Source of the DNA: Anaerolineae bacterium
GTDB taxonomy: Bacteria; Chloroflexota; Anaerolineae; Epilineales; JAHCIE01
Assembly (NCBI GenBank): GCA_046328505.1
Contig: JAXLWL010000004.1
Location: 9,559 to 73,558, forward strand
Length of the DNA stretch: 64,000 nucleotides
Reading direction: 5' to 3'
This document shows, in pieces, positions 12,974 to 41,504 of this stretch. Position numbers and translations under genes: made by a program. The notes under the pieces were generated by a model that saw nothing but the letters and a program-made list of their open reading frames with translations, made no database searches and was not told the origin of the DNA. Within the stretch, counting starts at the first letter, position 1. Each line of letters begins with the position of its first letter.

Positions 12974-13156
12974 GGCTCCTTCGGGTGCTAAACTCTGCCT
13001 GGTTCTGCTCTTCAGCAGATCCTCAGGTTTGCCTCAGGTTTGCGTCAGCCCATGCTGCTATGATGGAGCTGCTATTGGAACTTATCGCGCCTGCCAGTGA
13101 GCAGAGATCGCGACCATTCGAGAGAAAGGCTAATGATCCAACATGACAATGCGAGG

Positions 13157-21280: not shown

Positions 21281-22040
21281 GACGCCTCTCGTTGCATCAA
21301 ACACACAATACATTCACCTTTCCAAAGTATACGCGATTTGCTTTATGCACGGTAAAAGTTACTGCCGCGCATCGTGATCAACAGCCGTAAATACGTCGGA
21401 TGGCTAGGTTCCGCTTGAGGGCGAACGCATGTTGCCTGACGCATTGCTTTGAACATAGGTGACGATGCAGCAAATCAACAAGCAGGACGATCGGATGGAG
21501 TGACATGCGAGTCCAGTAGAGGTGCGAATCAATACGCTACGTGGAGGGAGCGCCATGTCCGATAGCCTCGCCCTCTCTGCTACTGTCCTTGATCGTGTTC
21601 ATACAATCAACTCTCCCGAAGACCTACACCGCCAGAAGGTTTTCACCTCAATCGTCGTCGGCATACTGTTGGAGCAGACCATCAGCATGCCTCAAGATAG
21701 TAGAGCGGTGAACCGGCGGTCTGCAGGCTCAGACGTTAGCTGATCTCGATGACTGTAACCGTGCTCTTCCCCTCACCACGAAATCCGCCACACTTCAACG
21801 AAATTCCCGTCGACGCGTTACCATTTGCCCCCCTTGTGCGTCTACTTATTGTAACTATATACTGTTTTCGCTACTCCGATCATCCTGCCGACGTTTCGTC
21901 GCGCGCCTCGTCCTCCGGCGATCAGCGCATTCTTACCCTCATCATCGCCTCGCTGATTTGCGCCCTGCTGTTCTCGGCTGACACGCCCAGGCTCTTCCGC
22001 CGTCTCGACCCCCGTCGGGACTGCCCTCCAGGAGGTCACC

Positions 22041-22724
22041 TTGGCTAGCTCGCCTCTTACCCCTAGTCGTGCCCTGCGCCGACCCCGCCGCATTGACATG
22101 CGCATCGTCGTCGGCGTCCTCCTCATGCTTGCCACCACCCTCGGCTCCCTCGCCTTCTGGACGGCCATCTCGGATGCCCGTCCCGTCGTGGTGGCGACCC
22201 ACGACCTGCCGGCCCTCGCCGTGCTCACCCCGTCCGACCTCACCGTCGCCCACGTCCGCATGGACGATACCCTCTACCAGGCTGCCATCCCTGGCGACGA
22301 TCTCAACACTCTCGTGGGTAAGCCCCTGTCCCAGCCGGTCTATGCCCAGGAGGTGCTGGTGCGCCCCCACATCGCGCCGCGTCCGGCCCTCGCCGCCGAC
22401 CAGGTCGCCATGACCATCGCCATCACGCCTGAGACAGGCGTCGGCGGACGGCTGCGGCCCGGCGACCAGGTGCAGGTGCTCGTCACCCTCAACAAGGGCA
22501 AGCCTGACGTGCGCTCGGCGGTCGTCCTCGACCGCGTCACCGTCTACGATGTCGGCTACGAGCAGCGAGTCGGCGCCATCAACACCGACAGCATCACCGG
22601 CAGCGGGGCGCAAGGCACGGCCCGGTGGCTGACACTGGCGGTGACCGCCGAGCAGTCGCGCCAGTTGGCCGAGGCGAAGGGCAGCGGCGACCTGGATGTG
22701 ACGCTGCTCCCGCCTCGGCGATAG
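22041..22724 (+). CDS. cpaB: Flp pilus assembly protein CpaB/RcpC (SAF domain)
   Basis: N-terminal TM helix. SAF-like region (TPSDLTVAHVRMDD...GKPLSQPVYAQEVL). First gene of the tad operon. Confidence 0.75.
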   Translation: MASSPLTPSRALRRPRRIDMRIVVGVLLMLATTLGSLAFWTAISDARPVVVATHDLPALAVLTPSDLTVAHVRMDDTLYQAAIPGDDLNTLVGKPLSQPVYAQEVLVRPHIAPRPALAADQVAMTIAITPETGVGGRLRPGDQVQVLVTLNKGKPDVRSAVVLDRVTVYDVGYEQRVGAINTDSITGSGAQGTARWLTLAVTAEQSRQLAEAKGSGDLDVTLLPPRR

Positions 22725-22734
22725 GGGCGGCGCC

Positions 22735-24162
22735 ATGAGCCAGTCCAATCCTGCGCAGCCTCAGCGGCTGCCCGATCCTCTCGACGCGCGCTGGCGCCTG
22801 GCCGTTGGGCTCGGCGACCCCGACCGTGAGCGCGCCCTGCTGCCGGCCCTCCGCGCCCTCGGCGACTTCGTCGTCGTCGAGCGCTGCCTGGCGGCCGACC
22901 AGCTGCTCGCCTGCCTCCAGGGGCGGCGCGCGGATGCGGCGATCCTGGCCTTCGACCTTCACCGGCTCAGCCAGGGCGTCATCGCCGACCTGCGCCAGAC
23001 GCGTGTCCCCCTCGTGACCCTGGCGCCCGACCCGAACCAGGAGCGGTGGCGCTCGCTCCCCGGCGTCGTCCTTCCCCTGGACGCCGACGCGGCGATGCTG
23101 GAGCGCGCCCTCACGGCAGCGCTGCGCGGCGAACGCCCACCGCCCGCCGAGCAAGACGAGCCGCTCACTCTGTCGCCGACGCAAGAGGCCCGGTCCCAGG
23201 CGCCGCCCGCCCTCTCTCTCATCGCCCTCGCCGGCGGCTACGGCAGTCCAGGGCGCACGACCCTCGCCCTCAACCTGGCGGCCGCCCTCGGCGCGGTCGC
23301 CCCCACGGTCCTGGTGGACGCCGACCTCAACAACCCCAGCCTGGCCATCCACCTCGACGCCGATCCCACTCGTAACCTCTCCATGCTGGCCCACGCGGAG
23401 CCCGACACGCCCCGCGCCTGGCGGCATGCCCTCGACGGGGAAACCCAGCCCCTAGCGGCCCGCAGCCCCCACGCGGTTGTCCTGTGCGGCCTGCCCAAGC
23501 CTGAGCTGCGCAGCCAGCTCACGCTGCCCTTCTTCGAGCGCCTGCTGGAGCATCTCCGCCTCCGCTATCGGTACGTCATTCTCGACGTCGGCGCGGAGGT
23601 ACACGGTTCCGAGTCCGCCCTGCACCGCGCCGCCCTGCAGCTGGCCGACCACACCCTCGTCATCGTCGCCGCCGACCTGGTCGGGCTGCGCCAGGGCCAG
23701 CGCGCCTTGACCTACCTGACCGACACCCTCGGGTTGCCCCACGAGCGTGTCGCCATCATCCTCAACCGCCACGACCGCCACCGCCATCACAGCCGGCCGG
23801 AGATCGAGTGGGCGCTCGACCGGCCAGTGGCCGGCGTCATTCCCTACGACCACGCCGCCGTGCAGCGCGCCCTTGACCGCCAGCAGCCCTTGCTTCTGGC
23901 CGGGAAGAGCCGCGCCGGCCGCGCCATCCTCGACCTGGCCGAACGCCTCCACGCCGGCCAGGTTGTCCTGCCCCCCGAAGCGCCTTCGAAGCGCCGCTTC
24001 CCCTGGCGACTCAACATTAAGAAGTCCAAGACCGGGCAGACGACGCCCGTTGAAGGAGACTTGCATGGCCACGTCCCTATCCCAGATGAGCCCCTGGCCG
24101 AGGGGCAGCTACGATCCAACGGTCGAGCGCGCCCTCCGCGCCGAGGTCCGCGAGGCCGTTAG
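22735..24162 (+). CDS. cpaE: Flp pilus assembly protein CpaE/TadZ (receiver-like N-domain plus ParA/MinD-type ATPase)
   Basis: Deviant Walker A IALAGGYGSPGRTTLALNLAAAL. Followed by the CpaF gene. Confidence 0.8.
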   Translation: MSQSNPAQPQRLPDPLDARWRLAVGLGDPDRERALLPALRALGDFVVVERCLAADQLLACLQGRRADAAILAFDLHRLSQGVIADLRQTRVPLVTLAPDPNQERWRSLPGVVLPLDADAAMLERALTAALRGERPPPAEQDEPLTLSPTQEARSQAPPALSLIALAGGYGSPGRTTLALNLAAALGAVAPTVLVDADLNNPSLAIHLDADPTRNLSMLAHAEPDTPRAWRHALDGETQPLAARSPHAVVLCGLPKPELRSQLTLPFFERLLEHLRLRYRYVILDVGAEVHGSESALHRAALQLADHTLVIVAADLVGLRQGQRALTYLTDTLGLPHERVAIILNRHDRHRHHSRPEIEWALDRPVAGVIPYDHAAVQRALDRQQPLLLAGKSRAGRAILDLAERLHAGQVVLPPEAPSKRRFPWRLNIKKSKTGQTTPVEGDLHGHVPIPDEPLAEGQLRSNGRARPPRRGPRGR

Positions 24163-25393
24163 CCGCCTGCTCAGTGACACGCAGTGGCTGACGCCCAGCG
24201 CCGCCGACGAGGCGCGCATCCGCGCCCTCATCCACGAGCACGTCGTCGCCTACCAGCGCCGCGCCGCTACGGCTAACACCGGCCCTCCTCTTCAACCCCG
24301 AGGCGGTCGAGCAGCATCTCTTCGATGGCCTGCTGCGCATGGGCATCCTCCAGCCGCTCATGGACGCGCCGAGCGTCGAGGAGATCATCTGCAACGGCCC
24401 GCAGCGCATCTTCGTCATCGAGGACGGGCAGAAGCGTCTCATGAGCGACCTGTTCTTCGACGACGACGAGGAGCTGCGGCAGCTCGTCAAGCGCCTGGTC
24501 GGGCCCCTGGGCCGCCGCCTGGACGAGTCCGCTCATGGTGGATGCGAGGCTGCTCAACGGGGCGCGGCTCAACGCCGCCATCCCGCCGGGCGACGACCCG
24601 CTGGTGCTGCCTCACCATCCGCAAGTTCACCTTGCGCGCCCACTCCCTGGAGCAGCTCGTCGAGTTGCGAACGCTGCCCGAGCACGGCGGCGCAGTTCCT
24701 GGACGCCGCGGTGCAGGCGGGCGTCAACATCCTCGTCAGCGGAGCAACCGGCGCCGGCAAAACGACGATGCTCAACGCGCTGGGCGCCTCCATCGCGTCG
24801 CTGGACGAGCGCGTCGTGACGATTGAGGAAGTGGCTGAATTGCAGCTCGACCGCCAGCTCCCCGACTGCGTCTCTCTACAGGCGCGAGCGCGAGCAACGT
24901 CGAAGGCGTGGGCGAGATCCGCATCCGTGACCTGGTCAAGAACGCCCTGCGTATGCGGCCGACGCGGATCATCGTCGGGGGAGTGCGCGGCGCGGAGGCG
25001 CTGGACATGCTGCTGGCCATGAACACCGGCCACGAAGGCTCCCTCGCCACCATCCATGGCAACTCGCCCCGCGACGCCCTGGACCGGCTGGTGACCCTGG
25101 CGATGATGGCTGAGGAGCGGCTGTCCAACGAGGCCCTCACGAAGATGGTGGCGCGCACCATTGAGCTGGTGCTCCAGGTGCGCTTCGAGCCGCGGACGGG
25201 CCAGCGGCGGCTGGTGAGCATCTTCGAGGTGACGGGGCTGGAAGGCGAGGTGATCACCGGCAACGACATCTGGGCGCTGGACGAGAAGAGCGGCCGCCTC
25301 GTCTGGACCGGCATCCAGCCGCGCTGCCTGACCAAGCTGGCCGCGCGGGGTATCCCGTATACCTTCGCGCCGACGCGCGGGCCGTCCGACTGA
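24065..25393 (+). pseudogene. cpaF: cpaF/tadA (Flp pilus assembly ATPase, VirB11/GspE family) disrupted by about five +/-1 frameshifts
   Basis: CpaF-like sequence is readable only by switching frames near 24270, 24530, 24605, 24680 and 24885. Examples: MATSLSQ...EARIRALIHEHVVAYQRRAA / LFNPEAVEQHLFDGLLRMGILQPLMDAPSVEEIICNGPQRIFV / MVDARLLNGARLNAAIPPGDDPLVL / TIRKFTLRAHSLEQLVELRTLPEH / [33 protein letters not shown]...[10 protein letters not shown] / [52 protein letters not shown]. Walker A and the His box are present but lie in different frames. Confidence 0.75.
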
Positions 25394-25730
25394 CACTTTC
25401 CTGCTACTTTCCCGGTTGCGTGTCCAGGAAAGTGGCAGGAAAGTCAGGAAAGCCCGCATTGGAGCCTCACTTTCCCGGCAGCGCGTCCAGGAAAGTGGCG
25501 GGAAAGCCGGAGAAACACACCTTGGAGCATCACTTTCCCGGCAGCGGGTCCGGGAAAGTGATGGGAAAGCAGGAAAAGCACGCGTTGGAGCTCCACTTTC
25601 CCGGCAGCGGGTCCGGGAAAGTGGCAGGAAAGTCGGGGCAGAGCAGTTTGCCGTCGATGCAACCGCCAAGTTCGCTCCACTTTCCCAACTCGTGGTCCGG
25701 GAAAGTGGCAGGAAAGCGCCGGGAAAGTGG
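25394..25730. repeat. five tandem copies (period 63 bp, one of 84) of a unit containing an 11-bp-arm palindrome CACTTTCCCGG-N8-CCGGGAAAGTG
   Basis: Palindromic cores at about 25405-25432 (variant), 25468-25497, 25531-25560, 25594-25623 and 25678-25707, with an extra half-site GGGAAAGTGG at 25721-25730. Each core is followed by a conserved GCAGGAAAG..TTGGAGC segment. Intergenic between cpaF and tadB. Confidence 0.85.
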
Positions 25731-25766
25731 CGTCTGGTACACTAGGGACAGGAGGGTGGGTTCAGC

Positions 25767-26624
25767 ATGATACCAATTCTACTCTCAGTTGGTTTAGGGT
25801 TGGCCGTCTTCTTCGTCTACGACGGGCTGACGCGCCCACCTACGCCCCAGGTGGAGACGCGAGAACGAACGCGGCTCGACGGGTTCCTGCTGCGGGCCGG
25901 TCTGCCGGATGTCAAGCCCCGCGAGTTCGCCTTGTTCTCTCTGGCCTGCAGCTTGGCCACCGCCATCGTCAGCCAGATCCTCCTGGGCTGGGGCATCGTC
26001 AGCCTGCTGGCCCTCCTGTTCGGCCTGGCGGCGCCCCTCGCCTACTACGCCCACCGCCACGATAGCCGCCGCGCTCAGGTCCAGGCCGCCCTGGTCGAGG
26101 CCATCGCCCAGCTCCGCGATGCCATCCGCAGCGGCCTCTCGGTTCAGGAGGCGCTGGTCGGTCTGGCGCGCGTCGGGCCAGAGGCGCTGCGGCCTGAGTT
26201 CGTCACGCTCGTCCGGGATATGCAACTCGACGGTGGTGAAGCGGGGCTGGTCGCCATGCGCGACCGCCTCGCCGACCCGCTGTTCGACATCGTCGCCGCC
26301 ACCCTCATCCTCAACGACCGGCTCGGTGGCCGCAACGTCAGCCAGGTGCTCGACGAGCTGGCCGAGACGACGCGGGCGCAGCTGCGCGTCCAGGATGAGC
26401 TGCGCGCTCACCAGGCTCAGACAGTGCTGTCCGCCCGAGTTGTGGCCGTCATGCCCCTGATCGTGCTGATCATCATTCGCCAGATGAACCCGCGCTACCT
26501 GGCCATCTTCAACGACTGGTCGGGCCAGGTCATCCTAGCGCTGTGCGTCCTGAGCATCGCCATCGGCTACGGGGCCATGCTCTGGATCACGCGCCTGCCG
26601 GCCGAGCGCCGCATCTTGAGGTGA
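25767..26624 (+). CDS. tadB: Flp pilus assembly inner-membrane protein TadB (T2SS-F domain)
   Basis: 285 aa with an N-terminal TM segment, a cytoplasmic helical domain and C-terminal TM segments. Position and architecture fit TadB. Confidence 0.75.
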   Translation: MIPILLSVGLGLAVFFVYDGLTRPPTPQVETRERTRLDGFLLRAGLPDVKPREFALFSLACSLATAIVSQILLGWGIVSLLALLFGLAAPLAYYAHRHDSRRAQVQAALVEAIAQLRDAIRSGLSVQEALVGLARVGPEALRPEFVTLVRDMQLDGGEAGLVAMRDRLADPLFDIVAATLILNDRLGGRNVSQVLDELAETTRAQLRVQDELRAHQAQTVLSARVVAVMPLIVLIIIRQMNPRYLAIFNDWSGQVILALCVLSIAIGYGAMLWITRLPAERRILR

Positions 26625-26628
26625 CGCC

Positions 26629-27603
26629 ATGCCTTTCCATTTCCACCTGTCGAGTCCGCCCGTCGCCGTCATTCTCTTGCCCCTCCTCTTCAGCCTGGGC
26701 GCCTACCTCATCCTCATGGCGCAGCCCATCGGTCGGCCGCGGCCTGACTTGAAAGAACGCCTGCGCCGCCTGGACGTGGACGAGAGGATGCGCGAGCAGA
26801 TGAGCCAGCCCATCCGCCGCCCCATCTTCGCCTCGCGCTGGCTGGAGGCCATCCTGCGACCTATCCTCGACGACGTCGGGCGGCTCGTGCGCTCGGTGCT
26901 GAGCCTATTCGGGCTCGGCGGCGGACGCCGGTTGGAGCGCAAGCTGCACATCGCGCGGCCCGAGGTCGAGATCTCCCAGTTCTTCGGCGAGAAGCTCGCC
27001 GCCGGGCTGATCGGCCTGGCGATCTTCCCGGTCATGAATGCCCTGGGCCTCCAGCCGTTCGGGACGTGGCCGACCTGGCTGTGGGGTGTCGGCTTCCTGG
27101 TCGGCTTTCTCAGCCCCGATTGGGACCTGGAGCGGCGGCTGGCCGAGCGGCGCATCGACGTCCTGATGGAGTTGCCGACCGTGCTGGACATGCTCACCAT
27201 CGCGACATCGGCAGGGCTGGCCCTGGAGCAAGCCCTCATCCTCGTCGCGCGGGAGAGCCAGGGCCTCGTCGCCCAGGAGCTGCAGCACGTAGTGCGCGAG
27301 ATGGCGCTGGGTCAGCGTTCCCTCGACGGCGCCCTGTCCGACATGGCCGAACGCAACGATGTGCCGCAACTGACGACCTTCGCCAACCACGTGCGCGCCG
27401 CCTACCAGCAGGGGACGCCTCTCATCCAGACACTGCGAACCCAGGCGGTGAGCCTGCGGGAGCAGAAGCGACTGCGGATTGTGGAAGAAGGGGGGAAGGC
27501 GAGTGTCAGGATGCTCTTCCCCGTGGCCCTCTTCATATTACCGGTCCTCTTCGTCGTACTCCTGCTGCCGGCGGTCTTCGAGCTGCTCAAGCTCGGGCGA
27601 TAG
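26629..27603 (+). CDS. tadC: Flp pilus assembly inner-membrane protein TadC (T2SS-F domain)
   Basis: 324 aa paralogous architecture immediately after tadB. Confidence 0.75.
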   Translation: MPFHFHLSSPPVAVILLPLLFSLGAYLILMAQPIGRPRPDLKERLRRLDVDERMREQMSQPIRRPIFASRWLEAILRPILDDVGRLVRSVLSLFGLGGGRRLERKLHIARPEVEISQFFGEKLAAGLIGLAIFPVMNALGLQPFGTWPTWLWGVGFLVGFLSPDWDLERRLAERRIDVLMELPTVLDMLTIATSAGLALEQALILVARESQGLVAQELQHVVREMALGQRSLDGALSDMAERNDVPQLTTFANHVRAAYQQGTPLIQTLRTQAVSLREQKRLRIVEEGGKASVRMLFPVALFILPVLFVVLLLPAVFELLKLGR

Positions 27604-27635
27604 GCAGGAGAGGAACTGCACAAGGAGGTGAGGCA

Positions 27636-27857
27636 ATGCTGTTCATTGTGTCGTTGTATCTGAGTTGGCTGCATAGCTATTTTCACAGGCTCGTCCTGCG
27701 CGTCTGGCGCGACGAGGAAGGGGCGTCGCTGGTGGAGTACGCCATCCTGGTGGCGCTCATCGCCATCGTCGCCATTGCTGCCGTCCAGGCCCTCGGCAAC
27801 GGGATCACCGGCGTCTTCCAGAACATCCTGGGGCGCATTCAAGGCCTGGGACGGTAG
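27636..27857 (+). CDS. flp: Flp/Fap-family type IVb pilin precursor
   Basis: ATG at 27636 with AAGGAGG 8 nt upstream. 73 aa MLFIVSLYL...EEGASLVEYAILVALIAIVAIAAVQALGNGI carries the Flp processing/hydrophobic motif (G-x4-EY). Hidden inside the spurious ORF 27066..27857. Confidence 0.75.
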   Translation: MLFIVSLYLSWLHSYFHRLVLRVWRDEEGASLVEYAILVALIAIVAIAAVQALGNGITGVFQNILGRIQGLGR

Positions 27858-27860
27858 GAA

Positions 27861-28289
27861 TTGGAGACTGGAAGCGTGTCGTCCTTGTATGCATCTGTTG
27901 TGGCCGTCGGCATCTTCGCAGCTGCCACGGTCACCGACATCCGCTCGCGTCGCGTGCCGCGCTGGCTCACGCTTGGCGGCATCCTACTCGGCCTGGCAGT
28001 CGCCGCCATGAGCGGGTCGGAGGCCCTACTTGCTAGCCTCGCTGGCCTGGTCGTCGGCGGGGTACTTCTGCTCCCCTTTGTCCTCAAAGGCGGGATGGGT
28101 CTGGCGGATGCGCTCCTGCTAGCAGCCGGTGGGGCGTGGCTGGGCTGGCAGCCCATTCTCCATGTCGCGCTGTGGGGCGCGCTGGCCGGTGGCATCCTGG
28201 CCCTCGTGGCGCTGGCCCGCGGGCAGCGCTCCCTTCCCTACGCGCCGGCCCTGCTCGTCGGCGTCCTACTGGCGTTGGCGGTACGATAG
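27861..28289 (+). CDS. cpaA: prepilin peptidase (A24 family, CpaA/TadV-like)
   Basis: 142 aa polytopic membrane protein with conserved Asp residues (ATVTDIRSRRVP...LGMGLADALLLAAGGAWLG). Confidence 0.7.
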   Translation: METGSVSSLYASVVAVGIFAAATVTDIRSRRVPRWLTLGGILLGLAVAAMSGSEALLASLAGLVVGGVLLLPFVLKGGMGLADALLLAAGGAWLGWQPILHVALWGALAGGILALVALARGQRSLPYAPALLVGVLLALAVR

Positions 28290-28302
28290 GAAGGTCGCCG
28301 TC

Positions 28303-28725
28303 ATGAACAGGCTCGAACGCTGGCTTGAATTTCATCAACGGTTGGAGATCGGCGCGGCGATGGTCGAAACAGCGGTTGCCTTTCCCCTGCTCATTATCGT
28401 CGCGCTGGGTCTCGTTCAGTTCGCCCTGTACGCCCACGCCCAGAACGTGGTTGTCGGCGCAGCCCAGGATGGAGCTCGCGTGGCGGCTGCCGAGGACCGC
28501 CACATCGAGGACGGGCTTGCTCGCGCCCACGACCTGCTACGGGCCGGACTCGGGCCGAGCGCCGAGGGGGTGAGCGTGCGCGGCGTGGACGGCGGGGACG
28601 TCGTGATGGTCGAGACGCAAGGCCGGCTGCGGCTTATCCTCCCGTGGGTGGGTGACGCCTCGCTGCCGCTCCACGCGCAGGCTATGATAAACAAGGAGGC
28701 GTTTCATGCTAGCCCGTCGCGCTAA
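28303..28725 (+). CDS. TadE-like pseudopilin
   Basis: Start refined to MNRLERW.... TadE N-terminal motif ERWLEFHQRLEIGAAMVETAVAFPLLIIVALGLVQF. Confidence 0.6.
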   Translation: MNRLERWLEFHQRLEIGAAMVETAVAFPLLIIVALGLVQFALYAHAQNVVVGAAQDGARVAAAEDRHIEDGLARAHDLLRAGLGPSAEGVSVRGVDGGDVVMVETQGRLRLILPWVGDASLPLHAQAMINKEAFHASPSR

Positions 28726-29155
28726 GTCCGCACGCTCCTGCGAGCGCGCTTCGGCGCTCGTCGAGGTTGCCCTCGTCTTGCCCCTGCTGCTTGTGCTCGC
28801 CTTCGGTGTCGTGGGTGTGAGCCGTGTCGTCCAGGCGCGGATGGGCGTGAGCGCCGTGGTGCGTGAGGCCGCTCGATCGGGCGCACTGGCGCAGGAGCCA
28901 GGCGAAGCCGTCGCCCGAGGGCTTTCGGTGGGACATGCGGTCGCCGAGGGGTATGGTCTGACCAACGGCTCGTTGGCGCTGGGTGTAGACGCAGGAGGTT
29001 TCGGGCCTGGTGGGAGTGTGCGGGCGAGTGCGGGTTACACAATATCGCTGGGCGATCTTCCGCTCCTTAGTTGGGCCAGCGTGAATGTGGCGAGCGAGCA
29101 CGTCGAGCGTGTGGACCTCTACCGCTCGCGGTGGACATCTGGAGGGAGGCCATGA
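28706..29155 (+). CDS. TadE-like pseudopilin
   Basis: RSCERASALVEVALVLPLLLVLAFGVV matches the TadE N-terminal motif. Confidence 0.6.
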   Translation: MLARRAKSARSCERASALVEVALVLPLLLVLAFGVVGVSRVVQARMGVSAVVREAARSGALAQEPGEAVARGLSVGHAVAEGYGLTNGSLALGVDAGGFGPGGSVRASAGYTISLGDLPLLSWASVNVASEHVERVDLYRSRWTSGGRP

Positions 29156-29619
29156 GGCGGTTGACAACGACACCGCTGAGAAGGCTTGACTTCCTGCTGG
29201 CTCGCGATGCCGGCCAGGCAATTGTGTGGGTCGCGGTGATGCTGCCGCTGTTCCTGGCGGTGATTGGCCTATCCATCGACGGCGGGTTGGTCTTCAGCGC
29301 CCGCCGCGAGTTGCAGAATGTCGCCGATGCGGCAGCTCGCGCCGGGGCGATGCAGATTGACGAGCGGGTCTACCGCGAGAGCTTCGGGCAGCGCGTCGTT
29401 CTCGATCCAGGCGCAGCGCAGGCAGCCGCCGTTGATTACATCGGGATGCAGCCAGGTCATCCCTCGGCATCCGTCAGCGCCGGCCCACAAGGGGTGCGGG
29501 TCGACACGGCGCGCGACGTGCCGACGAGCTTCTTGAGGCTCGTCGGGATTGAGACGGCGCGGGTGACGGCCACGGCCATCGCCGAGGTGCGCCACGGCAT
29601 TGAGCGGGGGGAACGGTAG
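29152..29619 (+). CDS. TadG-like (Tad_N domain) pilus assembly protein
   Basis: Start refined to MRRLTTT..., with GGAGGGAGG RBS. ARDAGQAIVWVAVMLPLFLAVIGLSIDGGLVFSARRELQNVADAAARAG matches the TadG N-terminal domain. Confidence 0.55.
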   Translation: MRRLTTTPLRRLDFLLARDAGQAIVWVAVMLPLFLAVIGLSIDGGLVFSARRELQNVADAAARAGAMQIDERVYRESFGQRVVLDPGAAQAAAVDYIGMQPGHPSASVSAGPQGVRVDTARDVPTSFLRLVGIETARVTATAIAEVRHGIERGER

Positions 29620-29628
29620 GAGGTAGGT

Positions 29629-30309
29629 ATGGATGTCAAGGACATGAGACCGGAAACCGAGACGGCGCGGGCGCGCCGGCCGTTCTGGATTGTCGCCGTC
29701 ACCCTGTTCGCCATCGTGCTCGTTGGGCTGCTGGCAGCGTACGGGCTGGACCGGCGATTCCGCGCGCCCGTGGGTGTCGAGCCGGCGCCACCGGGTAGCG
29801 CCTCTAGCCAAGCGCGCGCGCCAGGGACGCCGCCAACGGCTCTGCCCGCCGCGCAGCCTTCAGCCGTCGTCGTTGCACCGACGGTTGCCATCACACCGAC
29901 ACTCCCCGCTGGCTTGCGACTGGCCGACTCGCCCCTGGAGCGCGAGATCGAGGCCGCCTACCTGCACTACTGGCAGGTTCTCGCTGAAGCCAACCTGACG
30001 CTCGACACGTCTCGACTGCCCGAAGTGGCAGCCGATAAGGAGCTTGTCCAGGCGCAGCAGCAGGTCAACGACCTCAAGGCACAAGGCAGGGCCGCCAAGC
30101 TGGATGTTGAACATCGGACGGCCTTCGCGAAGGTCACTCCGACCCAGGCTGTCATCGCCGATGAGTACCTGAACAAGAGTGTGTTTGTGGATCCGGTCAC
30201 AAAGGAGGAGCTGAAGACTTCGTCGCCGCCGACCGTCGAGAAGCTATCGTTCACGATGCGGAAGATCGACGGGCAATGGAAAGTCGTGGAGGCGCTGCGC
30301 TATGATTAA
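29629..30309 (+). CDS. membrane-anchored hypothetical protein (tad-locus accessory)
   Basis: N-terminal TM helix (FWIVAVTLFAIVLVGLLAAYGL) and Pro/Ala-rich linker. Overlaps the next gene. Confidence 0.45.
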   Translation: MDVKDMRPETETARARRPFWIVAVTLFAIVLVGLLAAYGLDRRFRAPVGVEPAPPGSASSQARAPGTPPTALPAAQPSAVVVAPTVAITPTLPAGLRLADSPLEREIEAAYLHYWQVLAEANLTLDTSRLPEVAADKELVQAQQQVNDLKAQGRAAKLDVEHRTAFAKVTPTQAVIADEYLNKSVFVDPVTKEELKTSSPPTVEKLSFTMRKIDGQWKVVEALRYD

Positions 30310-31408
30310 GCATCTCTTTCCATCACTGGTTCTCGCTTTGCTCGTAACCGCTTTTCTTTCTACCTCCGTTCATGCCGACGGGCCAAACCCCGACCGGCCG
30401 CAGCCGCATGTCAATCGCGATCATCTGAACGTTCAGACCCGTGTCGAGAGCCGCCGCGACGGAGTCTATGTTGAGATTTCCGTCCAACAGTCAACGCCAG
30501 GGGAAGACCGGCCGAGTCCGCATGCGCGTGCTACCGATGAACCCTCGAACAACACTGCATCTGCAACGACTGCTACAAGTTCGGCTCAGCCGGTGAGCAC
30601 GGGACCGCAGGAGCGCTACTGGAGCAACAACACCGGGATCTACCGCGAGACGGTAGACGGTCACGTAATCCAGCTCACGCCGCCACCTATTGGCACAGCC
30701 AGCCTGAGCGCCTGGGACACCGCGCGGGCTAACCACCCCGACCAGACGCCGTATCTCCTGTACGTGGACGACCAGTACAACGGCGTCGTCTGGATCCCCC
30801 AGTCGCCCCAGAACGGCAACGTTCGCATCGAGGCGATGCCCTCCGCCCAGCCCTCGCGTCCCTCAGGTGATGACAACAGCACGGACGCGCGCGAAGTCGC
30901 CCTCAGCGCCCTGGGCCACGTGCGCCTCCCCGACATGCACGTCCGCGTGAACCCGTCCCTTGGCCTCGTCAACCTGCCGGGCTGGTTTTGGGTCGACGGC
31001 TACGACGGTCGCCCCTTCGGCGTCAGCCGCACCGTCCATGTCCCGCCCGAGATTGGCGACGATGTCCCCGATACCGTCGTCCCTGCCGACGACCCCCGTC
31101 GGCGCGGCACGAGTTTCACCGTCAGCGTGCGGATCTGGCCGAGCCAGTATGAGTGGAACTTCGGCGACGATCACATCCTGGTGACCGACTCCCTGGGCAA
31201 GCCCCACCCTGCCGAGTCCGACATCCAGCATACCTACGAGACCTCTTCCCTGGGTTTTGCCAACGGCTTCCCCGTTCGGCTGAGCGTCACCTTCCACGCC
31301 GAGTACCGCGTCAACGGTGGCCCGGCTGAGGCGCTGCCCTCGATCACCCAGGTGGTCGAGTACGGCTACCGCGTGCAGGAAGCGCAATCGGTTCTCACCG
31401 GTCATTGA
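30302..31408 (+). CDS. secreted hypothetical protein (tad-locus accessory)
   Basis: Signal peptide [25 protein letters not shown]. No recognisable domain. Confidence 0.45.
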
Positions 31409-31428
31409 GTGGGAGCGAGGAGGAAGTC

Positions 31429-34400
31429 ATGCAGACGACCTACGTAGACATGGACGAGCAGCGGCGCGACCGTGTGAGCCTCCTGGGGCTGATTGTCGGC
31501 CTGGTGGGCGTGGGCGTCTTCCTCTATAAGGTGCCCGGCCCGCCCCACTTGCCCGCGACGTGGCCGACGTGGGCTGGCATCGTCACGACCCTGCAGGGCA
31601 GCTATCTCCCCCTGGATGGCGTCATCTACGTGCTCATGATGCTCGCCTGGCTGCTCTGGGCCTGGCTGGCTTTCTCGCTTGTCCTGGAGCTGATTGTCGT
31701 AACCGTCGAGAAAGTCTCACAGGGCGCGGCGTGGGCGCGAAGCCTACGCGCTGCGGCTGACCATGTCACAGCGCCCATCGTGCGCCGCGTGGTGCAGGGC
31801 GCCGTCGTGGCAACCGTCGTGGTCAACCTCGTGGGCCGGTCGGGGACGCCGGCGAACGCCGCACCTATGGAGACAACCCCGATTGTGCTCCAGCAGCGGG
31901 CGCCAACAGATGCTGCGCCTCCGGTGGTCGAGCAAGAGGCCGAGCACAATCCGCGCGTCGTCGAGTACACGGTGCAGTCGGGCGACAGCCTGTGGGCCAT
32001 CGCCGAGCGCTTCTACGGCGACGGCGACGCCTATCCCCGCGTCGTCGCGGCCAACGTCGGCCGCGCCATGCCGAACAATGGGCGCTTCACGCCGGCCGGC
32101 GTCATCCACCCTGGCTGGGTGCTGGTCATCCCGCTCCCCGACGAGGCGCCGGCCGAGCACAGGCAGCGGACCACCTACGTCGTGGCAAAAGGGGATACAT
32201 TGTGGGGCATTGCCGGGAGGTTCTTGGGCGACCCGACCCGCTGGCCGGAAATCTTCGAGCTGAACCGCGGCGTTGCCCGCCATCCCCAGACGGGCTGGAC
32301 GCTCACGAACCCTAACCTCATCTGGCCGGGCCTGCCCCTCCAGATACCTGTCGAGGCGCCATCTGAGCAGCCCGCGCCCCTGCCCCCGGCTCCTGTTGTC
32401 GAGCATCCAGTGGAGACCTCGCCAGTTCCCGGCCTCCAACCTGGTACGATTACAACGGCAACGCCTCGGCCCGCAGAGCCTAAGCAAGTCGTCGTCGAAA
32501 CGCCCGTGGCAACACCGGTTCCCGTCGCCACGCCCTCGCCGGTCGTGCACGAGCAGGCTCTACCGCCTATAGTGTGGGGGGCAGTGGGGCTGATGGTCGC
32601 CGCCGGCATCGCTGGCCTGGCCTTGCGGCGTCGGGTGCGGCGCAGCGTGGCCGAGTCGCTGGCCCCCGACCCGGCGGAGGTCATGCCGCCCCACGGCGAC
32701 TTCGTCGACGCCGAGTTCGCGCGCCTGCTGCGCCACCGGCTGCAGAATGGCGAGGTCGAGGCGGCCGTTCTGGTTGCCGAGCAGACGCTGCGCTTCCTAC
32801 GCGATGAGGGCATAGAGGGAGTCTCCCTCATCATGGCCGGCCAGGGCGCCAAGTCAGTCAACCTGATTCTGTCCACGAGCTTACAAGACAAGGAGCGTAT
32901 TATCGCCTTGGCGCCTAAGATGGGCGCGCGCCTCGGCGGAACGGTCAAGGCGGAGACGACGTGCGACGACGATATCGCCCTCGAGGTATCGGAGCCCAAG
33001 CTCGCCGATGTCGCGTCTGCCTCTAAGCGCGCCCACGAGTTGCCCCGCCTTGTCGCCGTCGGGCTCTTGCCTCAGCAGACCACAACCTACATCAACTGGC
33101 CGAAGGCGGGTCATGTCCTTATCGCGGGGACCCCAGGCGGCGGGACGGACATAACGCTCACTAGCCTCATGTGCGCGTTGGCGACCCGCTATCACCCGGA
33201 CGCTCTCCGGCTGTACACCGTTGCCAGCCGCCGCGCCCTGCCACACCAGCTGTTCGATCTGCCACACGGGGTTGAGATCGCCGATTCGTCCGACGCAAGA
33301 GGCGTGCAGGGAATCCTGGAGCAGGTGGAGGCCGAGCTTGTTCGACGCATGAAAGCCGCCGCCGAAGGAGAAGCGACCCGGGAGCCAGAGATTGTGATTG
33401 TGCTGGGCGAGCTCGCCGACGTAGAGGACATTGCAGCGGTGGACATGATCGGAACGCACGGCACGGCGCATGGTATCCAGCTTCTTGCCGCCACAAGCCG
33501 CGTGGACGAGATCCCCGACGGGACGTTGGCGCTCTTCTCCACGCCGCTGGTTCTGCGACTACTCGACGACGAGACCAGCATTCGCGTCTTGGACGACAGC
33601 GCTGCCGCCGACCTGGGGCGCGGTGACATGTTCCTGTCCCTGGACAGCCGCTGGCCGATCCAGATGCGCGGCCTGCGCGTCTCACCGGAGCACCTGGATC
33701 AGCTGGTTACAGTGATGCGTGAGGCCTATGGGGAGCCGACACCGGCCCCATCCCTGGCAACCGCCGACGAGAACGACGCCGAGATAGTTGCCGACGGCGA
33801 GGAGCTTTCCGTGCAGTCGCCGAACGGGCACGCGCCAGCGGCTGTACCGGCCAAACCAGTCGAGGCTAAGCCCGACCTTCCGGTGGACGCGAGCGCAGCG
33901 GAAAACGACCTTGTTGAGCCTGTCACACTAGCGCTCCCGGCGCTTAACGGCCACACGCCACCGATACCCCTGCCGAGCGACGCCTCAGACGCGCCGCCTG
34001 AGGTCGACGGGGTTGAGGAGGAGCCGCCGGTGTTCATCCAGTGCTTCGGCAGCCTGGTCGTCCGATACGCGGGGAAGACCCTGCAGGCCAGGGCAGAAGG
34101 GCGCGCCATCCTCAAGTCGTGGGAGGTGATCGCCTACTTGGCGTGCTATCCACCCGAGGGCGTGACCGTGGATCGGCTAATCGCCGATGTCTGGCCCGAC
34201 ACTGACGGCGCTGACAAGAACGTGCTGCACATCGCGATGTACCGAGCACGCAAGGCACTGCAAGAGCAAGTCGAGAGTGTCAGCGACGACGTCATTCGCC
34301 TGGACCGCGATGGGACGTGTCTCCTCGACCGCGCGTTGGCCACGTCGGATGTCCACCAGTTCATGGCGCTCGTCTCGCGGGCACAAAGGCTTCCGTCTGC

Positions 34401-34854
34401 CCAAGCCAGGGCCGCATTGGAAAGAGCGCGGGACCTGTACCAGGGGGACCTGCTCTCCAGCCCTCAGGCGCGAACGTTCCACTGGCTTGACAATCGCGGG
34501 GCGAGCGGGTTGACGCTTCGCGAGACCTACCGCATCGAGTACCAGCGAGCCATGTGCCAGTTGGCGGGGCTCTACCGCGAAGACGGCGAGTTCCAGCGGG
34601 CTCAGGCGCTGCTGAAGGGCATGCTGCAGCAGGAGCCAACGCTCGAAGATGTCGTGCGCGAGCTGTATCGTCTCTACGCGCAGATGGGCGACCTGGCCGG
34701 GTTACGGCGGGAAGACCGTCGCCTGCGTCTGGCGCTGCAGTCCGCCTACTACGACCCGAACAACCCCGACGACGACCCCGGCCTCTACTCGCCCGAAGCC
34801 GAGACCGTCGCGCTATATAATGAGATACACAGGGCCCTGAACCCGATAAGCTAG
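31429..34854 (+). CDS. giant multidomain protein: N-terminal TM helices, two LysM domains, Pro-rich linker, TM helix, FtsK/SpoIIIE-like P-loop domain with degenerate Walker A, C-terminal BTAD (SARP-type transcriptional activator) domain
   Basis: LysM domains [20 protein letters not shown]... and [20 protein letters not shown].... FtsK-like [27 protein letters not shown] (no Walker Lys) and [12 protein letters not shown] (Walker B-like). BTAD-like [25 protein letters not shown]...[10 protein letters not shown]. Start at the ATG at 31429 with GAGGAGGA upstream. Confidence 0.6.
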
Positions 34855-35024
34855 GCCAATCCTGCCGTCCCACAACCTTCTATTCCTGTCCCCGCCCAAG
34901 CGGCTATGCTACTCGTGCATAACCGCTTGGTTGACTGTGTGACGTACCAGCCTATAATCAGCGGGTAGTGAGGGATGACCCGCTGACGGGTCTGTCTGAG
35001 CGTTGAGTGGCGGGGGGAAGGCGT

Positions 35025-38000: not shown

Positions 38001-38063
38001 AGGTATAGTCCCTTCTATGGAGGCAACGATCAGGGGTTTCGGGTCGTATTTTCCAATCTCTGA
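35025..38063 (+). CDS. STAND NTPase: N-terminal ~145-aa helical domain, G/N-rich strand motif, NACHT domain, C-terminal FGE-sulfatase (SUMF1-like) domain
   Basis: Walker A LVIVGDPGAGKTTFLKHL, Walker B LVMFDGLDEV. FGE-sulfatase signature RYPVTVAQFEAYV...LPSEAEWEKAARG...SPYGIEEMAGNVWEWT...VVRGGAF...GFRVV. Shared motif VQGNGNVVAAGNISDSVINSGRVEA at 35448-35531. Confidence 0.85.
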   Translation: MDLEGWKQATRERLHGMAEILRRKTPGAVYGGLSAAAILPIISALNQGDLMAVLAFGSLLGSVGAGLITNQIQAWKDKSDTELAEELTQKAETDAKWREALDKLMQELETPRLAQETLAPGGRAWLAEALNQELTRLGSSVRVQGNGNVVAAGNISDSVINSGRVEAREGSVVIIAQQVSRDIVASLKPEGLSASELQAITEPYLKYLITRYRYLDFKGMGMADRVPLRLPIEDMYIPLRARVEIPRWERSGWQDFEALSDREAQLLGSLETPEESRYTTERFGGSPWLLDLLGRHDGLVIVGDPGAGKTTFLKHLTLSLALGHGERVGLANRLPVLVPLSAYARALELEDVALQEFLGTYYRNQGTDLSIDALLAAALSDGRALVMFDGLDEVQEITRRGLVLERVTAFYALHRQRGNKFILTSRIVGYKDVRLTAEGLEECTLVDFDERDIREFINKWTCAVEQAIHGPSAFSLRQAEIEGNELLDAIARNPGVRQLAANPLLLTILALMKRQGVALPERRVELYDKYVETLLRHWNLARGLDRRAARDLDVVETLRVIAPLALWMQATSPGRGLVKQADLQRQLIAIYSERGEADPERAARQFQHDVRDHAGLLLERGPREYGFIHLTFQEYLAAVAIAQHGQVDVAPVVRTLAAHMDDASWREAVLLTIGYLGLIQQRDEAAGDVLQQLVASPEASPAAVVLAGEAAVDAGPGGVSVSGRQAVAGALLAVMRDDEHADALTRAAAGDALAKLGDPRFRANAWFLPDEPLLGFVKIPSGGLTMVEGSTENVVDVPTFFIGRYPVTVAQFEAYVDASGQTPVNKQSLRDPVNRPVRYISWSEAMNYCRWLAGTLRVWADTPQPLADWLRGTGERPPGRITLPSEAEWEKAARGTAEHTYPWGEQPNPNRANYRDTKIGDTSSVGCFPSGASPYGIEEMAGNVWEWTRSILKNYPYDPKDGREDEAIEGNRVVRGGAFIDNATSLRCSFRGRYSPFYGGNDQGFRVVFSNL

Positions 38064-41499: not shown

Positions 41500-41504
41500 A
41501 GAAA

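Follow-up and report, generated by a model that had tools for sequence, protein, structure and literature searches.

The tad locus and its intergenic array

The window analysed here, a stretch of 64 kb, contains a Tad pilus locus in which a repeat array of ~340 bp lies between cpaF and tadB, opening 1 base past the cpaF stop codon (TGA, 25391-25393) and leaving 37 bp between its 3' end and the tadB ATG (25767). The cpaF/tadA-type secretion ATPase gene (24065..25393, forward strand), whose start probably lies at 24065 judging from the peptide MATSLSQ, was recognised by Pfam T2SSE on its C-terminal piece and carries five indels relative to locus L003 (24283 (+1), 24529 (-2), 24588 (+1), 24684 (+1) and 24888 (+2)), where the orthologue is intact over 474 open codons with 93% DNA identity to the window. 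All five are 500-1100 bp away from the array on its 5' side, with none at its edge, and so give no backing to an earlier note on this DNA that had tied the repeat to the cpaF frameshifts. Downstream, tadB (25767..26624, forward strand; Pfam T2SSF) encodes a protein 100% identical to an NCBI protein of an Anaerolineae MAG, and is the first gene of a presumed regulated unit of tadB, tadC, flp, a prepilin peptidase gene and tadE/G-like genes. A ParA/MinD-type tadZ gene was also found in the locus by Pfam.

Searching the 64-kb window with the inverted repeat CACTTTCCCGG-N8-CCGGGAAAGTG (up to 3 mismatches) gave five matches, all between cpaF and tadB (25394-25730) and starting at 25405, 25468, 25531, 25594 and 25678, with 0 matches in 100 shuffles. 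The start-to-start distances were 63, 63, 63 and 84 bp, both values being multiples of 10.5 and 21, and Tandem Repeats Finder reported a period of 63 with 3.6 copies and 83% matches, a 126-bp superperiod scoring better. The five-copy palindromic repeat that the earlier note had described is therefore real by pattern search, shuffles and Tandem Repeats Finder. Its uniform 63-bp spacing holds for the first three intervals and not for the last (84 bp), and its perfect palindromes are confined to units 3 and 4, units 1, 2 and 5 having 1-2 arm mismatches.

Unit 1 (25394..25456; all units are given on the forward strand) comprises two reverse half-sites, an 8-bp centre and three forward half-sites, with a core inverted repeat at 25405-25434 and longer 21-nt arms at 25395-25415 and 25424-25444. 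The inverted repeat of unit 2 (25457..25519) has one arm mismatch (25468-25497), and perfect inverted repeats occupy 25531-25560 in unit 3 (25520..25582) and 25594-25623 in unit 4 (25583..25645). Extra forward half-sites follow in each, one exact and one degenerate in units 2 (GGAGAAA) and 3 and a single one in unit 4. A 21-bp non-repeat insert (25646..25666, forward strand) then brings the last spacing to 84 bp instead of 63, adding two helical turns, before unit 5, the promoter-proximal module (25667..25729), which has a reverse half-site at 25678-25686 and the direct 11-mers CCGGGAAAGTG GCAGGAAAGCG CCGGGAAAGTG at 25697-25729 on the forward strand.

The half-sites have a consensus of ~8-9 bp, GGGAAAG(T/C)G, and 11-bp steps between half-sites are present within every unit. 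What had been called a conserved 33-bp tail is mostly one or two forward half-sites at 11-bp steps, with a likeness between units of just 65-83%. Exact GGAAAG hexamers number 12 forward and 6 reverse across ~330 bp of the array, so that 18 GGAAAG/CTTTCC hexamers fall in 25396-25727 versus 23 in the remaining 63.6 kb, and no second cluster was found upstream of cpaB or elsewhere in the tad locus of the window. All 18 share one helix face (coherence R=0.95 at 10.5 bp; highest of 2000 random sets, 0.75). Two open reading frames over the array (25416-25745 and 25420-25770) are very probably artefacts, as the earlier note had it, because the equivalent intergenic regions of relatives are far shorter (~70 bp in L015 and ~170 bp in L013); their repetitive peptides mirror the repeat.

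No copy of the palindrome occurs in the window outside 25394-25730. Among 185,579 genomes, a collection that does not include the source genome, it was present on two contigs of STL-CHL21, a close relative, and one contig of STL-CHL20, and the remaining matches belonged to a longer, unrelated actinobacterial palindrome family or were lone chance-level matches. A metagenome scan for perfect palindromes returned 22 lone hairpins (contigs of 32-73% GC) and no arrays, a viral scan for the palindrome returned no match, and BLAST of the array against plasmid and phage collections was likewise negative; a viral scan with a triple GGGAAAG pattern found four phage contigs carrying 3-7 tandem 11-mers in unrelated contexts. 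The dispersed REP-like hairpin that had been proposed is not what these searches found, the palindrome occurring at no other place in the window, at two places in one close relative and in no metagenome or viral array.

The non-tad locus of STL-CHL21 (L009) contains three palindromic units and the promoter-proximal module twice, with three motif types side by side, and adjoins a large serine recombinase gene. As read from the sequence, a leftward GGGAAAG-type promoter stands there before a small ORF resembling a ribbon-helix-helix protein. The STL-CHL20 contig (L008) has a single palindrome beside a big ORF without a Pfam domain, and its context is uninformative.

Promoter geometry before tadB in the window and in relatives

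Between the array and tadB, the -10-like hexamer TACACT (25738..25743, forward strand) stands 8 bp past the last 11-mer and 23 nt 5' of the ATG, and a ribosome-binding site, GGAGG, was read from the sequence at 25751..25755 (forward strand), 11 nt 5' of the ATG. GGGAAAGTG ends at 25729 and is followed by 8 bp and then TACACT, the exact gap depending on the chosen end of the core. The position 17 bp upstream of TACACT reads AGCGCC, which is not -35-like, and a promoter scan found no sigma-70-type two-hexamer promoter around the array. Intrinsic terminators (a GC-rich hairpin plus T-tract) were absent from both strands of 24800-26300. Promoter and terminator scans found none upstream of cpaB; a TTGTGC-16-TATATA pair picked there by eye fails the promoter-scan criteria and no claim is made for it.

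In SARP-dependent promoters direct repeats with 11-bp (or 22-bp) spacing and ~8 conserved bases per 11-bp repeat are placed so that the 3'-most lies ~8 bp from the -10, and the -35 is weak or missing with the repeats overlapping its position (PMC10936776). The sequence before tadB has three direct 11-mers at 11-bp steps, the 3'-most ending at 25729 with the -10-like hexamer opening at 25738, and the repeats cover the position where a -35 would stand; a candidate cognate protein with a winged helix and a BTA domain is encoded in the same locus.

Homologues of TadB were used to find relatives, which gave ten tadB loci with TadB identities of 62-100%. All ten had 2-6 direct 11-mers upstream of tadB followed, after 7-9 bp, by a single TAnAnT-like hexamer; loci with this gap include L013, L014, L015, L016, L044, L045, L046 and L047. 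Eight of the ten loci had the hexamer at -26 to -30 relative to the tadB start, and L045 had it at -39, over a background for such hexamers of 0.0002-0.0008 per position. The 11-mer type varied by lineage (GGGAAAG, GAAAAGGAACC, GGTACGCTCCG, GGGGACGG, TTGAGSC and GAGTAA), and in L013, L014, L016 and L044 the 11-mer before tadB was the sole lag-11 repeat found.

The promoter-proximal module was present in every GGGAAAG-type relative (L012, L013, L015 and L047), and every GGGAAAG-type module contained a reverse half-site. The number of modules was one in L015, two in L013 and five in both the window and L047. The copy-number comparison suggested in the earlier note thus gave a difference between lineages and none between the window and L047. 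The units of L013 are out of helical phase (R=0.20 at 10.5 bp), and relatives with one module or other 11-mer types keep the promoter layout and have no comparable hairpin.

The orthologous arrays of the window and L047 were identical at 105 of 108 hexamer positions (97%) versus 170 of 242 other positions (70%; Fisher p=3e-10), and agreed in unit number, in 63/63/63/84 spacing and in total length (379 bp). The 84-bp last spacing was kept in L047 though the sequence of the 21-bp insert was almost wholly different. The units of the two are register-shifted relative to each other, which together with the 126-bp superperiod points to unit turnover. L012 had 0 differences from the window in the 186 bp upstream of tadB versus 37 over the other 1277 bp of its contig, mostly in tadB/tadC coding sequence, and L016 and L017 were identical across 2766 bp except that exactly two 11-mers (22 bp) were present in one and absent from the other.

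A candidate regulator encoded in the tad locus

A gene at 31405..34854 (forward strand) encodes a protein of 1149 aa with Pfam LysM, FtsK_SpoIIIE, Trans_reg_C and BTAD matches. It combines hydrophobic segments in its N-terminal part with two LysM domains and an FtsK-like domain, and ends in a SARP module of winged helix and BTA domain, for which 33982-34851 codes. BTAD scored 26.3 bits, above the cut-off, and Trans_reg_C 25.4 bits, just below its cut-off of 26.2. An AlphaFold2 model of the C-terminal 290 aa (pLDDT 86) has a SARP fold, the six best PDB matches in a fold search being EmbR and the AfsR SARP domain (E 7e-9 to 1e-6, TM 0.61-0.71); a PDB search by sequence with the same C-terminus gave a designed TPR protein alone, and EmbR and AfsR emerged via the fold search.

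The hydrophobic segments (residues 22-45, 66-105, 125-143 and 385-408) indicate that the protein is probably membrane-anchored, with a topology predicted from hydropathy. At the Walker A position of the FtsK-like domain the sequence is GTPGGGTD, in which the lysine is absent; GxxxxGK[ST] occurs nowhere in the 1149 aa, and PGGGTD is also in the consensus of 8 homologues. Motor activity is doubtful for a domain of this kind without its Walker A lysine. A translocase loading site of the KOPS or clt type, which calls for a partner with intact Walker A/B, was set aside on the same residues.

At least 250 LysM–FtsK-like–SARP homologues exist, those that are named having generic labels only (for example 'LysM peptidoglycan-binding domain-containing protein' or SARP-family regulator). 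A LysM–FtsK–BTAD gene with a product of ~1150 aa lies at the far end of every related tad locus that is long enough, and no other DNA-binding domain protein was found to be conserved across these loci.

The window and L047, which have their motif in common, also share one and the same recognition helix; the helix is similar in L016 and L044, which have similar cores (GGTACG and GGGACG), and differs in the remaining loci. The first four sequences compared were too diverged, and adding P0130, P0132 and P0139 gave a suggestive pattern, an agreement between helix and motif with which phylogeny is confounded, overall identity among the SARP modules being just 37-54%. In one assembly, GCA_039810265.1, there are two tad loci, and these differ from one another both in 11-mer type and in the regulator that they encode.

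A probable activator array on an internal promoter, and its rivals

One alternative in the earlier note, an array of cooperatively bound transcription-factor sites from which tadB, tadC and flp are driven, is the one that the sequence evidence favours, because a promoter-like hexamer stands at a set distance from the tadB start across related loci (n=10), 11-bp direct repeats stand 8 bp 5' of that hexamer, a SARP-fold regulator is encoded in the same locus, and the half-sites are conserved far above the rest of the array. We consider it probable that the array is a stack of activator-binding sites on an internal tadB promoter, with the SARP of the locus as the likely binder. The element recognised would be the GGGAAAG(T/C)G half-site, bound by a sequence-specific DNA-binding protein. 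The proximal module (25678-25743), with one reverse and three forward half-sites, 8 bp and TACACT without a -35, would form an activator-dependent internal promoter serving tadB, tadC, flp and the following genes. The four upstream modules, which lack a -10, would be decayed tandem copies of the proximal module and would add 14 half-sites on the same helix face.

The protein most likely to occupy the half-sites is the 1149-aa one, through its C-terminal SARP module. If it binds these sites and binding activates transcription, protomers on the proximal direct repeats may substitute for -35 recognition and recruit RNA polymerase in the manner of AfsR, and the upstream modules may raise local occupancy or permit cooperative, switch-like loading.

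The array could also be bound by a protein other than the SARP of the locus, such as a dimeric repressor, a ribbon-helix-helix protein or a centromere-like partner of TadZ, which we regard as unlikely. The 11-N8-11 inverted repeats would serve such a repressor as operators, and dimeric repressors typically use inverted repeats with a fixed 8-bp centre; a reverse half-site stands in every GGGAAAG-type module, and the leftward GGGAAAG-type promoter of L009 precedes a small ribbon-helix-helix-like ORF; TadZ is itself a ParA/MinD-type protein, and phased arrays in which short repeats stand in direct and inverted orientation are typical of plasmid centromeres (parC of R1, omega heptads). However, the 11-bp direct repeats, 8-bp gap and absent -35 match SARP geometry specifically, motif type tracks the SARP recognition helix, the related tad loci have no further conserved DNA-binding domain protein, and a non-exhaustive search of short ORFs recognised no small centromere-binding gene beside tadZ and no small ribbon-helix-helix or HTH gene in the locus. 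SARPs bind direct repeats head-to-tail and we know of no precedent among them for an inverted half-site in each module, which makes a second factor or another binder possible; L009, with its three motif types, is likewise not predicted by a simple picture of one locus and one regulator. A role for the inverted repeats as hairpins within the RNA of a cpaB-tadZ-cpaF transcript, giving 3'-end protection, processing marks or a read-through block and so uncoupling upstream from downstream gene dosage, as REP hairpins do within E. coli operons, appears quite unlikely. The array does start 1 base past the cpaF stop codon, and its units fold at -16.6 to -35.7 kcal/mol (unit 1, -35.7), four of the five folding better than all 200 shuffles (unit 2 was equalled by 9 of 200) and the whole region having a folding z-score of -5.35. 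Against this, 13 units held 0 compensatory substitutions (0 of 11 pairs changed on both sides), with 12 pair-breaking cells, in a covariation test that had low power since the arms vary little and in which shuffled controls scored equally; arm variants break the pair or wobble, and the arms are fixed in sequence, unlike the freely varying loop. The 8-mer of the arms recurs as unpaired direct repeats at 11-bp steps, and the use of the half-site in both inverted and direct orientation is unexplained by a hairpin. No T-tract terminator was found, no Rfam 15 family reached its gathering score at a permissive search threshold (the best match, sbcD RNA, scored 21.7 bits against 40, and the rest were microRNA-type hairpin models far below), and relatives with one module or other 11-mers retain the promoter layout without the hairpin. 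An added RNA-level role for hairpins of this stability is possible.

Two further readings concern the origin of the array. A neutral minisatellite, in which slippage or unequal recombination amplified the proximal module into functionless extra copies, was raised in the earlier note and accounts for how the array could have arisen, with its one (L015), two (L013) or five (window and L047) modules by lineage, the 22-bp indel between L016 and L017 and the unit turnover seen between the window and L047. As a full explanation it is distinctly improbable, since half-sites are 97% identical and the rest 70% between the window and L047 (p=3e-10), all 18 hexamers are in helical phase, and unit number, spacings and total length are the same despite turnover, an identity between two diverged strains that argues against free variation in copy number. 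A REP- or MITE-like mobile element landed between cpaF and tadB, or a degenerate CRISPR array, is scarcely credible. The 30-bp partly palindromic core, the 63-bp period and the second STL-CHL21 locus, where three units and the proximal module lie by a large serine recombinase gene, would suit such an element. REP/BIME families, though, have tens to hundreds of dispersed copies; here the 64-kb window has no second copy, the STL-CHL21 and STL-CHL20 genomes among the 185,579 contribute three contigs in total, and metagenome arrays and viral, plasmid and phage matches are all absent, while the low-power covariation test found no pairing kept by compensatory change. CRISPR arrays have near-identical repeats and unique spacers, and here the reverse holds, the 33-bp 'spacers' resembling one another (65-83%) and the 'repeat' varying at its 8-bp centre, with no cas domain in the Pfam scans run in the window; the earlier note had rejected CRISPR for the same likeness of spacers.

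A broader version of the activator reading, which we put forward tentatively and think somewhat unlikely as a whole, is a private regulator-operator code in which each Chloroflexota tad locus has its own membrane-anchored LysM–FtsK-like–SARP protein and 11-bp repeat, several loci within one cell being controlled independently and the operator in the window having been amplified into a 340-bp loading platform on one helix face. Such a platform could load a higher-order, membrane-tethered activator assembly, possibly ring-like via the FtsK-like domain, so that a cell-wall signal would be answered in switch-like fashion and the pilus operon kept at the membrane, and repeat gain and loss would tune pilus expression among strains.

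Likeness to known systems and significance

The proposed activator array on the tadB promoter most resembles the SARP promoters of actinomycetes (the afs box of AfsR at afsS and the targets of ActII-ORF4 and DnrI) in its 11-bp direct repeats, in a 3'-most repeat ~8 bp from a weak -10 with no usable -35 and ~8 conserved bases per repeat, and in a winged-helix plus BTA regulator encoded within the cluster whose repeat sequence is cluster-specific. Unlike those systems, its host belongs to the Chloroflexota rather than the Actinomycetota, its target is a Tad pilus operon rather than a biosynthetic gene cluster, and its SARP module forms the C-terminus of a LysM–FtsK-like protein that is probably anchored in the membrane. 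An inverted half-site is also present in each module here, and four further modules make a helically phased 340-bp array where known SARP boxes have 2-3 repeats.

ToxR and CadC join an OmpR-type winged helix via transmembrane segments to an extracytoplasmic sensor and act at promoters, and the combination of winged helix, hydrophobic segments and LysM domains found here is similar (with topology taken from hydropathy), but their DNA-binding domain is N-terminal and they have no BTA or FtsK-like domain. ParR-parC of R1, with ten 11-bp iterons around a promoter, and the omega protein heptads of pSM19035 are repeat arrays bound cooperatively; the present array shares with them many short direct and inverted repeats, helically phased and by a promoter, with a ParA-type tadZ near, and departs from them in belonging to a chromosomal pilus operon and in having a -10 geometry that follows the SARP rule, and in that a non-exhaustive search of short ORFs recognised no small centromere-binding gene. 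With REP/BIME elements it shares imperfect palindromes between operon genes and stable RNA hairpins, but it is not dispersed, shows no pairing covariation and reuses its half-site as unpaired direct repeats. In TraB-clt and FtsK-KOPS the winged helix of an FtsK-like translocase reads 8-bp motifs, and here too a winged helix is joined in one protein to an FtsK-family domain, with repeated 8-bp motifs nearby; the Walker A lysine, however, is missing, and the repeats stand at a set distance from the -10 and start codon in every lineage.

SARP regulators have been studied almost solely as antibiotic-cluster activators in actinomycetes, and our literature search found no report of Tad pili under a SARP-type regulator and none on how Tad systems are regulated in Chloroflexota. 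If the SARP of the locus does act on this array, the SARP promoter rule of 11-bp repeats and 8 bp to the -10 would extend to another phylum and to a surface-appendage operon, and a widespread, unannotated LysM–FtsK-like–SARP architecture would gain a testable function. The tadB loci would also provide a natural promoter series, with one, two or five modules and at least six operator sequences, for studies of the part played by site number and phasing in activation and of the joint divergence of regulator and operator specificity, and regulatory links in uncultured Chloroflexota would become predictable from sequence alone.

Half-sites of the array upstream of tadB

The array lies between the stop of the cpaF/tadA-type ATPase gene (TGA, 25391-25393) and the tadB ATG (25767). 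Searching the 64-kb window for CACTTTCCCGG-N8-CCGGGAAAGTG with up to 3 mismatches gave 5 matches, all in the array (units 1-5, starting at 25405, 25468, 25531, 25594 and 25678, with start-to-start distances of 63, 63, 63 and 84 bp), and zero matches were obtained in 100 shuffles. Tandem Repeats Finder reported a period of 63 bp (3.6 copies, 83% matches), which was outscored by a 126-bp superperiod. These data confirmed the five-unit palindrome array described in the earlier note with small corrections, as only units 3 and 4 were perfect palindromes, units 1, 2 and 5 having 1-2 arm mismatches each, and the last spacing was 84 bp. The array is thus real and non-random.

The working element is the half-site, not the 63-bp unit. 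In each unit, a reverse half-site CACTTTCC (two in unit 1) and a forward half-site GGAAAGTG lay on either side of an 8-bp centre, and 1-2 additional forward half-sites followed in steps of 11 or 9 bp. Exact GGAAAG hexamers numbered 12 forward and 6 reverse in 25396-25727, with 23 in the other 63.6 kb. Hexamer centres were phase-coherent at a 10.5-bp period (R=0.95; maximum R 0.75 over 2000 random placements, periods of 9 to 12.5 bp scanned), partly as a consequence of the 63-bp tandem structure but with an independent contribution from the 84-bp last spacing and the within-unit 20/11/11 spacings; reverse and forward hexamers fell on nearly the same helical phase.

Compared with the intact orthologue (474 open codons) in L003, an STL-CHL21 locus, cpaF (24065-25393) carried five indels (+1, -2, +1, +1 and +2, at 24283, 24529, 24588, 24684 and 24888) that split it into alternating frames, the net +3 placing its first and last segments in one frame; all neighbouring tad genes were intact. 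A connection between this frameshifting and the array had been suggested, but the indels were 500-1100 bp away and showed no relation to it. They could be genuine, making cpaF a pseudogene within a pilus locus that is otherwise complete, or could reflect a local error in assembly. In base composition the window is mosaic, with G+C of 62-73% over the tad locus and adjoining P-type ATPase gene (19001-35000; dip to 55% at 21-22 kb), 55-61% on the left (12-19 kb) and 50-53% between 49 and 54 kb. The genes that immediately follow the tad locus (35007-48900) look like a defence or STAND-NTPase island. They encode a pair of NACHT–FGE-sulfatase proteins of 1018 and 1060 aa, an NB-ARC–TPR protein, a protein with a caspase domain and an SNF2 helicase of 1211 aa carrying NOV_C; at this position the related locus L047 instead encodes an MmeI-type enzyme together with an SNF2 helicase. 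At 6874-8951, several tandem repeats based on CCATCATG (periods 12, 15 and 27 bp, such as 4.2 copies of 27 bp at 7621-7733) fall in minus-strand ORFs, with DUF305, cation-efflux and heavy-metal ATPase genes close by; they may code for metal-binding repeats rich in His/Met.

The promoter-like last unit and its relatives

The last unit of the array is a promoter-like module. From 25678 it reads CACTTTCCC-N12-GGGAAAGTG GCAGGAAAGCG CCGGGAAAGTG, the 8-bp GCGTCTGG, TACACT (25738-25743, plus strand, 8 bp 3' of the last 11-mer), 7 nt, GGAGG, 11 nt and ATG. No -35-like hexamer was found at this module, and a promoter scan around the array gave no two-hexamer sigma-70 promoter. Promoters targeted by SARP regulators have direct repeats 11 or 22 bp apart, the protein contacting the first 8 of the 11 bp in each, with 8 bp between the 3' repeat and the -10 element and with repeats overlapping a poor -35 (PMC10936776). 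All four features were matched by unit 5, where the gap from 3' repeat to -10 is 8 to 10 bp by choice of core end.

Related loci were collected by way of TadB homologues, the window TadB being 100% identical to an NCBI Anaerolineae MAG protein. L012 (TadB 98%), whose contig begins within the array, had its last two units identical to those of the window, and L047 (98%, DNA) had a complete five-unit array upstream of tadB. L015 (TadB 83%) had the proximal module alone, then AGGTCGGC and TAGACT, and L013 (80%) the proximal module with one palindrome. In more distant loci, the 11-mers were of other types: three of GAAAAGGAACC type, then TAGACT, in L014 (73%); GGTACGCTCCG x5 and x3, then TATAGT, in L016 and L017 (71%); CCAGGGGACRG x6, then TACTGT, in L044 (69%); TTGAGSC x2, then TACAGT, in L045 (64%); and weak GAGTAA-type repeats x3, then TAGAGT, in L046 (62%). 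In a right-aligned comparison of the 90 nt preceding the start codon in ten loci, a single TAnAnT-like hexamer was present at -26 to -30 in 8 of them (background rate 0.0002-0.0008 per position), L044 having TACTGT at that position and L045 its hexamer at -39. The lag-11 repeat upstream of tadB was the sole one in the locus in L013, L014, L016 and L044. An architecture kept while the repeat sequence differs by lineage is the pattern expected of a cluster-specific regulator-operator pair.

L047 matched the window in unit number, spacings (63, 63, 63 and 84 bp), stop-to-ATG distance (379 bp) and phase coherence (R=0.95 at 10.5 bp). Its coding flanks were 98% identical to those of the window (cpaF 3' end 471/480, tadB 841/858), whereas within the array identity was 105/108 at hexamer positions versus 170/242 at other positions (Fisher p=3e-10; p=3e-5 with 85% expected identity assumed to allow for ascertainment). 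Unit tails were register-shifted between the two, with A-B alternation, showing turnover of units with their number, spacing and sites preserved. L012 had 0 differences from the window in the 186 bp upstream of tadB versus 37 in the other 1277 bp of its contig, mainly tadB and tadC coding sequence. Between more distant lineages, and in the number of 11-mers, copy number does vary: one (L015), two (L013) or five modules (window and L047) were present in lineages of GGGAAAG type, and the STL-CHL21 array, inside which the contig ends, had a spacing of 55 bp, unlike the window. L016 and L017, from two samples, shared 2766 bp in which the only difference was a 22-bp indel before tadB (L016 5912-5933) equal to two GGTACGCTCCG 11-mers (five copies versus three), a clean repeat-number polymorphism at the presumed operator.

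The candidate regulator

A gene for a protein of about 1150-1240 aa with LysM, FtsK_SpoIIIE and BTAD domains was found at the far end of every locus reaching that far. In the window this gene lies at 31405-34854, and its Pfam domains were LysM x2, FtsK_SpoIIIE, Trans_reg_C (25.4 bits, slightly under the cut-off) and BTAD. An AlphaFold2 model of its final 290 residues (pLDDT 86, pTM 0.83) had as its top six PDB matches M. tuberculosis EmbR and the AfsR SARP domain in transcription initiation complexes (E 7e-9 to 1e-6; seventh match about 1e-2); the C-terminus is a genuine SARP module. At the Walker A position of the FtsK-like domain (residue 572) the sequence was GTPGGGTD, with no lysine, and GxxxxGK[ST] was absent throughout the protein; since PGGGTD was also in the consensus of its homologues, this domain probably lacks motor activity. 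The LysM domains are flanked by hydrophobic segments (22-45, 66-105, 125-143 and 385-408), suggesting a protein anchored in the membrane, its LysM part outside and its SARP part inside. The LysM–FtsK–SARP architecture recurred in at least 250 homologues, the named ones, whose names were generic throughout, all being from Chloroflexota MAGs except one partial Nanopelagicales record.

The predicted recognition helix was the same in the window and P0130, the L047 protein, which have the GGGAAAG motif in common. L016 (AYVRLRNVLSKLRNSL) and L044 (ALGRLRHTLNKLRNIL) resembled each other both in helix and in core (GGTACG and GGGACG), and in L014, L045 and L046 both helix and motif were different. This apparent co-variation agrees with a regulator-operator model, while being confounded with phylogeny. 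More telling, assuming that the MAG is not chimeric, is assembly GCA_039810265.1, where two complete tad loci (L016 on contig 6 and L047 on contig 20, TadB about 71% identical) each had their own 11-mer type upstream of tadB and their own LysM–FtsK–SARP gene.

Occurrence elsewhere and interpretation of the array

Scanning 185,579 species with a pattern fitting all five units gave 11 loci, 3 of them informative: L003 (cpaF 3' end and array start, at a contig end), L009 (STL-CHL21, a non-tad locus) and L008 (STL-CHL20, one palindrome). Six of the other eight belonged to a longer actinobacterial palindrome family and two were at chance level. In a metagenome scan the palindrome turned up 22 times, always singly and never in an array. 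A viral scan gave no match to the palindrome, and plasmid and phage collections no match to the array. The REP-like dispersal considered in the earlier note was therefore not borne out, and a REP-like element was rejected as far as these data reach. The longer perfect palindromes, (G/T)CACTTTCCCGGGCTATA(G/A)CCCGGGAAAGTG(C/A) (L001, L002, L004, L005, L006, L011, L026 and L033), were intergenic in several actinobacterial orders (Solirubrobacterales, Phytoactinopolyspora, Actinomycetospora), Phytoactinopolyspora having three copies within a still longer palindrome; the 11-nt arm that they share with the window unit was treated as coincidence. In four IMG/VR phage contigs (L018-L021), 11-mers with the core GGGAAAG were repeated perfectly in tandem 3-7 times (such as GGGAAAGCGAC x7), in unrelated contexts.

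Alternatively, the units could act as RNA hairpins, and their predicted folds of -16.6 to -35.7 kcal/mol would suit this. Across 13 aligned units from five loci, however, the arms were nearly invariant and the 8-bp centre free, with 0 compensatory pair changes and 12 pair-breaking cells, equal to shuffled controls, in a test of low power because the arms vary little. No T-tract was found at the array and no Rfam family scored above threshold for it, and a hairpin leaves unexplained both the unpaired direct repeats and the relatives that have the promoter layout without palindromes. The units may nevertheless act in RNA in addition to DNA.

Similar modules occurred outside tad loci. L009 (JAXLWK010000004.1, 5640-7340) adjoins a large serine recombinase and had, within 1.7 kb, at least 6 promoter-like modules on both strands (2-3 direct 11-mers, 7-9 bp, then TAnAnT) of GGGAAAG, GAAAAGGAACC/GAATAGGAACC and GGGGACGG types, three palindromes of 62-bp period and a 67-bp copy of the window's proximal module (90% identical, with TGGTACACT). 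Motif types that serve tadB promoters in different lineages thus coexist in what resembles a mobile element's control region. This mixture fits a small regulator family per genome, and a strict model of one regulator per locus does not predict it. Elsewhere in the window, 11-bp repeats formed only one more triplet, CCTCAGGTTTG CCTCAGGTTTG CGTCAGCCCAT, followed 5 bp later by TATGAT (13009-13053); it is intergenic, close to cytochrome c and DUF2085 genes, and may mark a second promoter built the same way on a different motif.

The array is best explained as amplified, helically phased activator half-sites on a putative SARP-type internal promoter for tadB, tadC and flp, with the LysM–FtsK-like–SARP protein of the same locus probably the cognate regulator. 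The analysis shows the anatomy and conservation of the array and the SARP fold of the protein, which support the proposal of a transcription-factor array driving these genes, and from them we infer binding and activation: the candidate activator would bind the half-sites at the internal promoter and activate tadB, tadC and flp. Such a system would be new relative to known SARP systems in its phylum, its target, the architecture of its regulator, its inverted half-sites and the amplification of its binding module.
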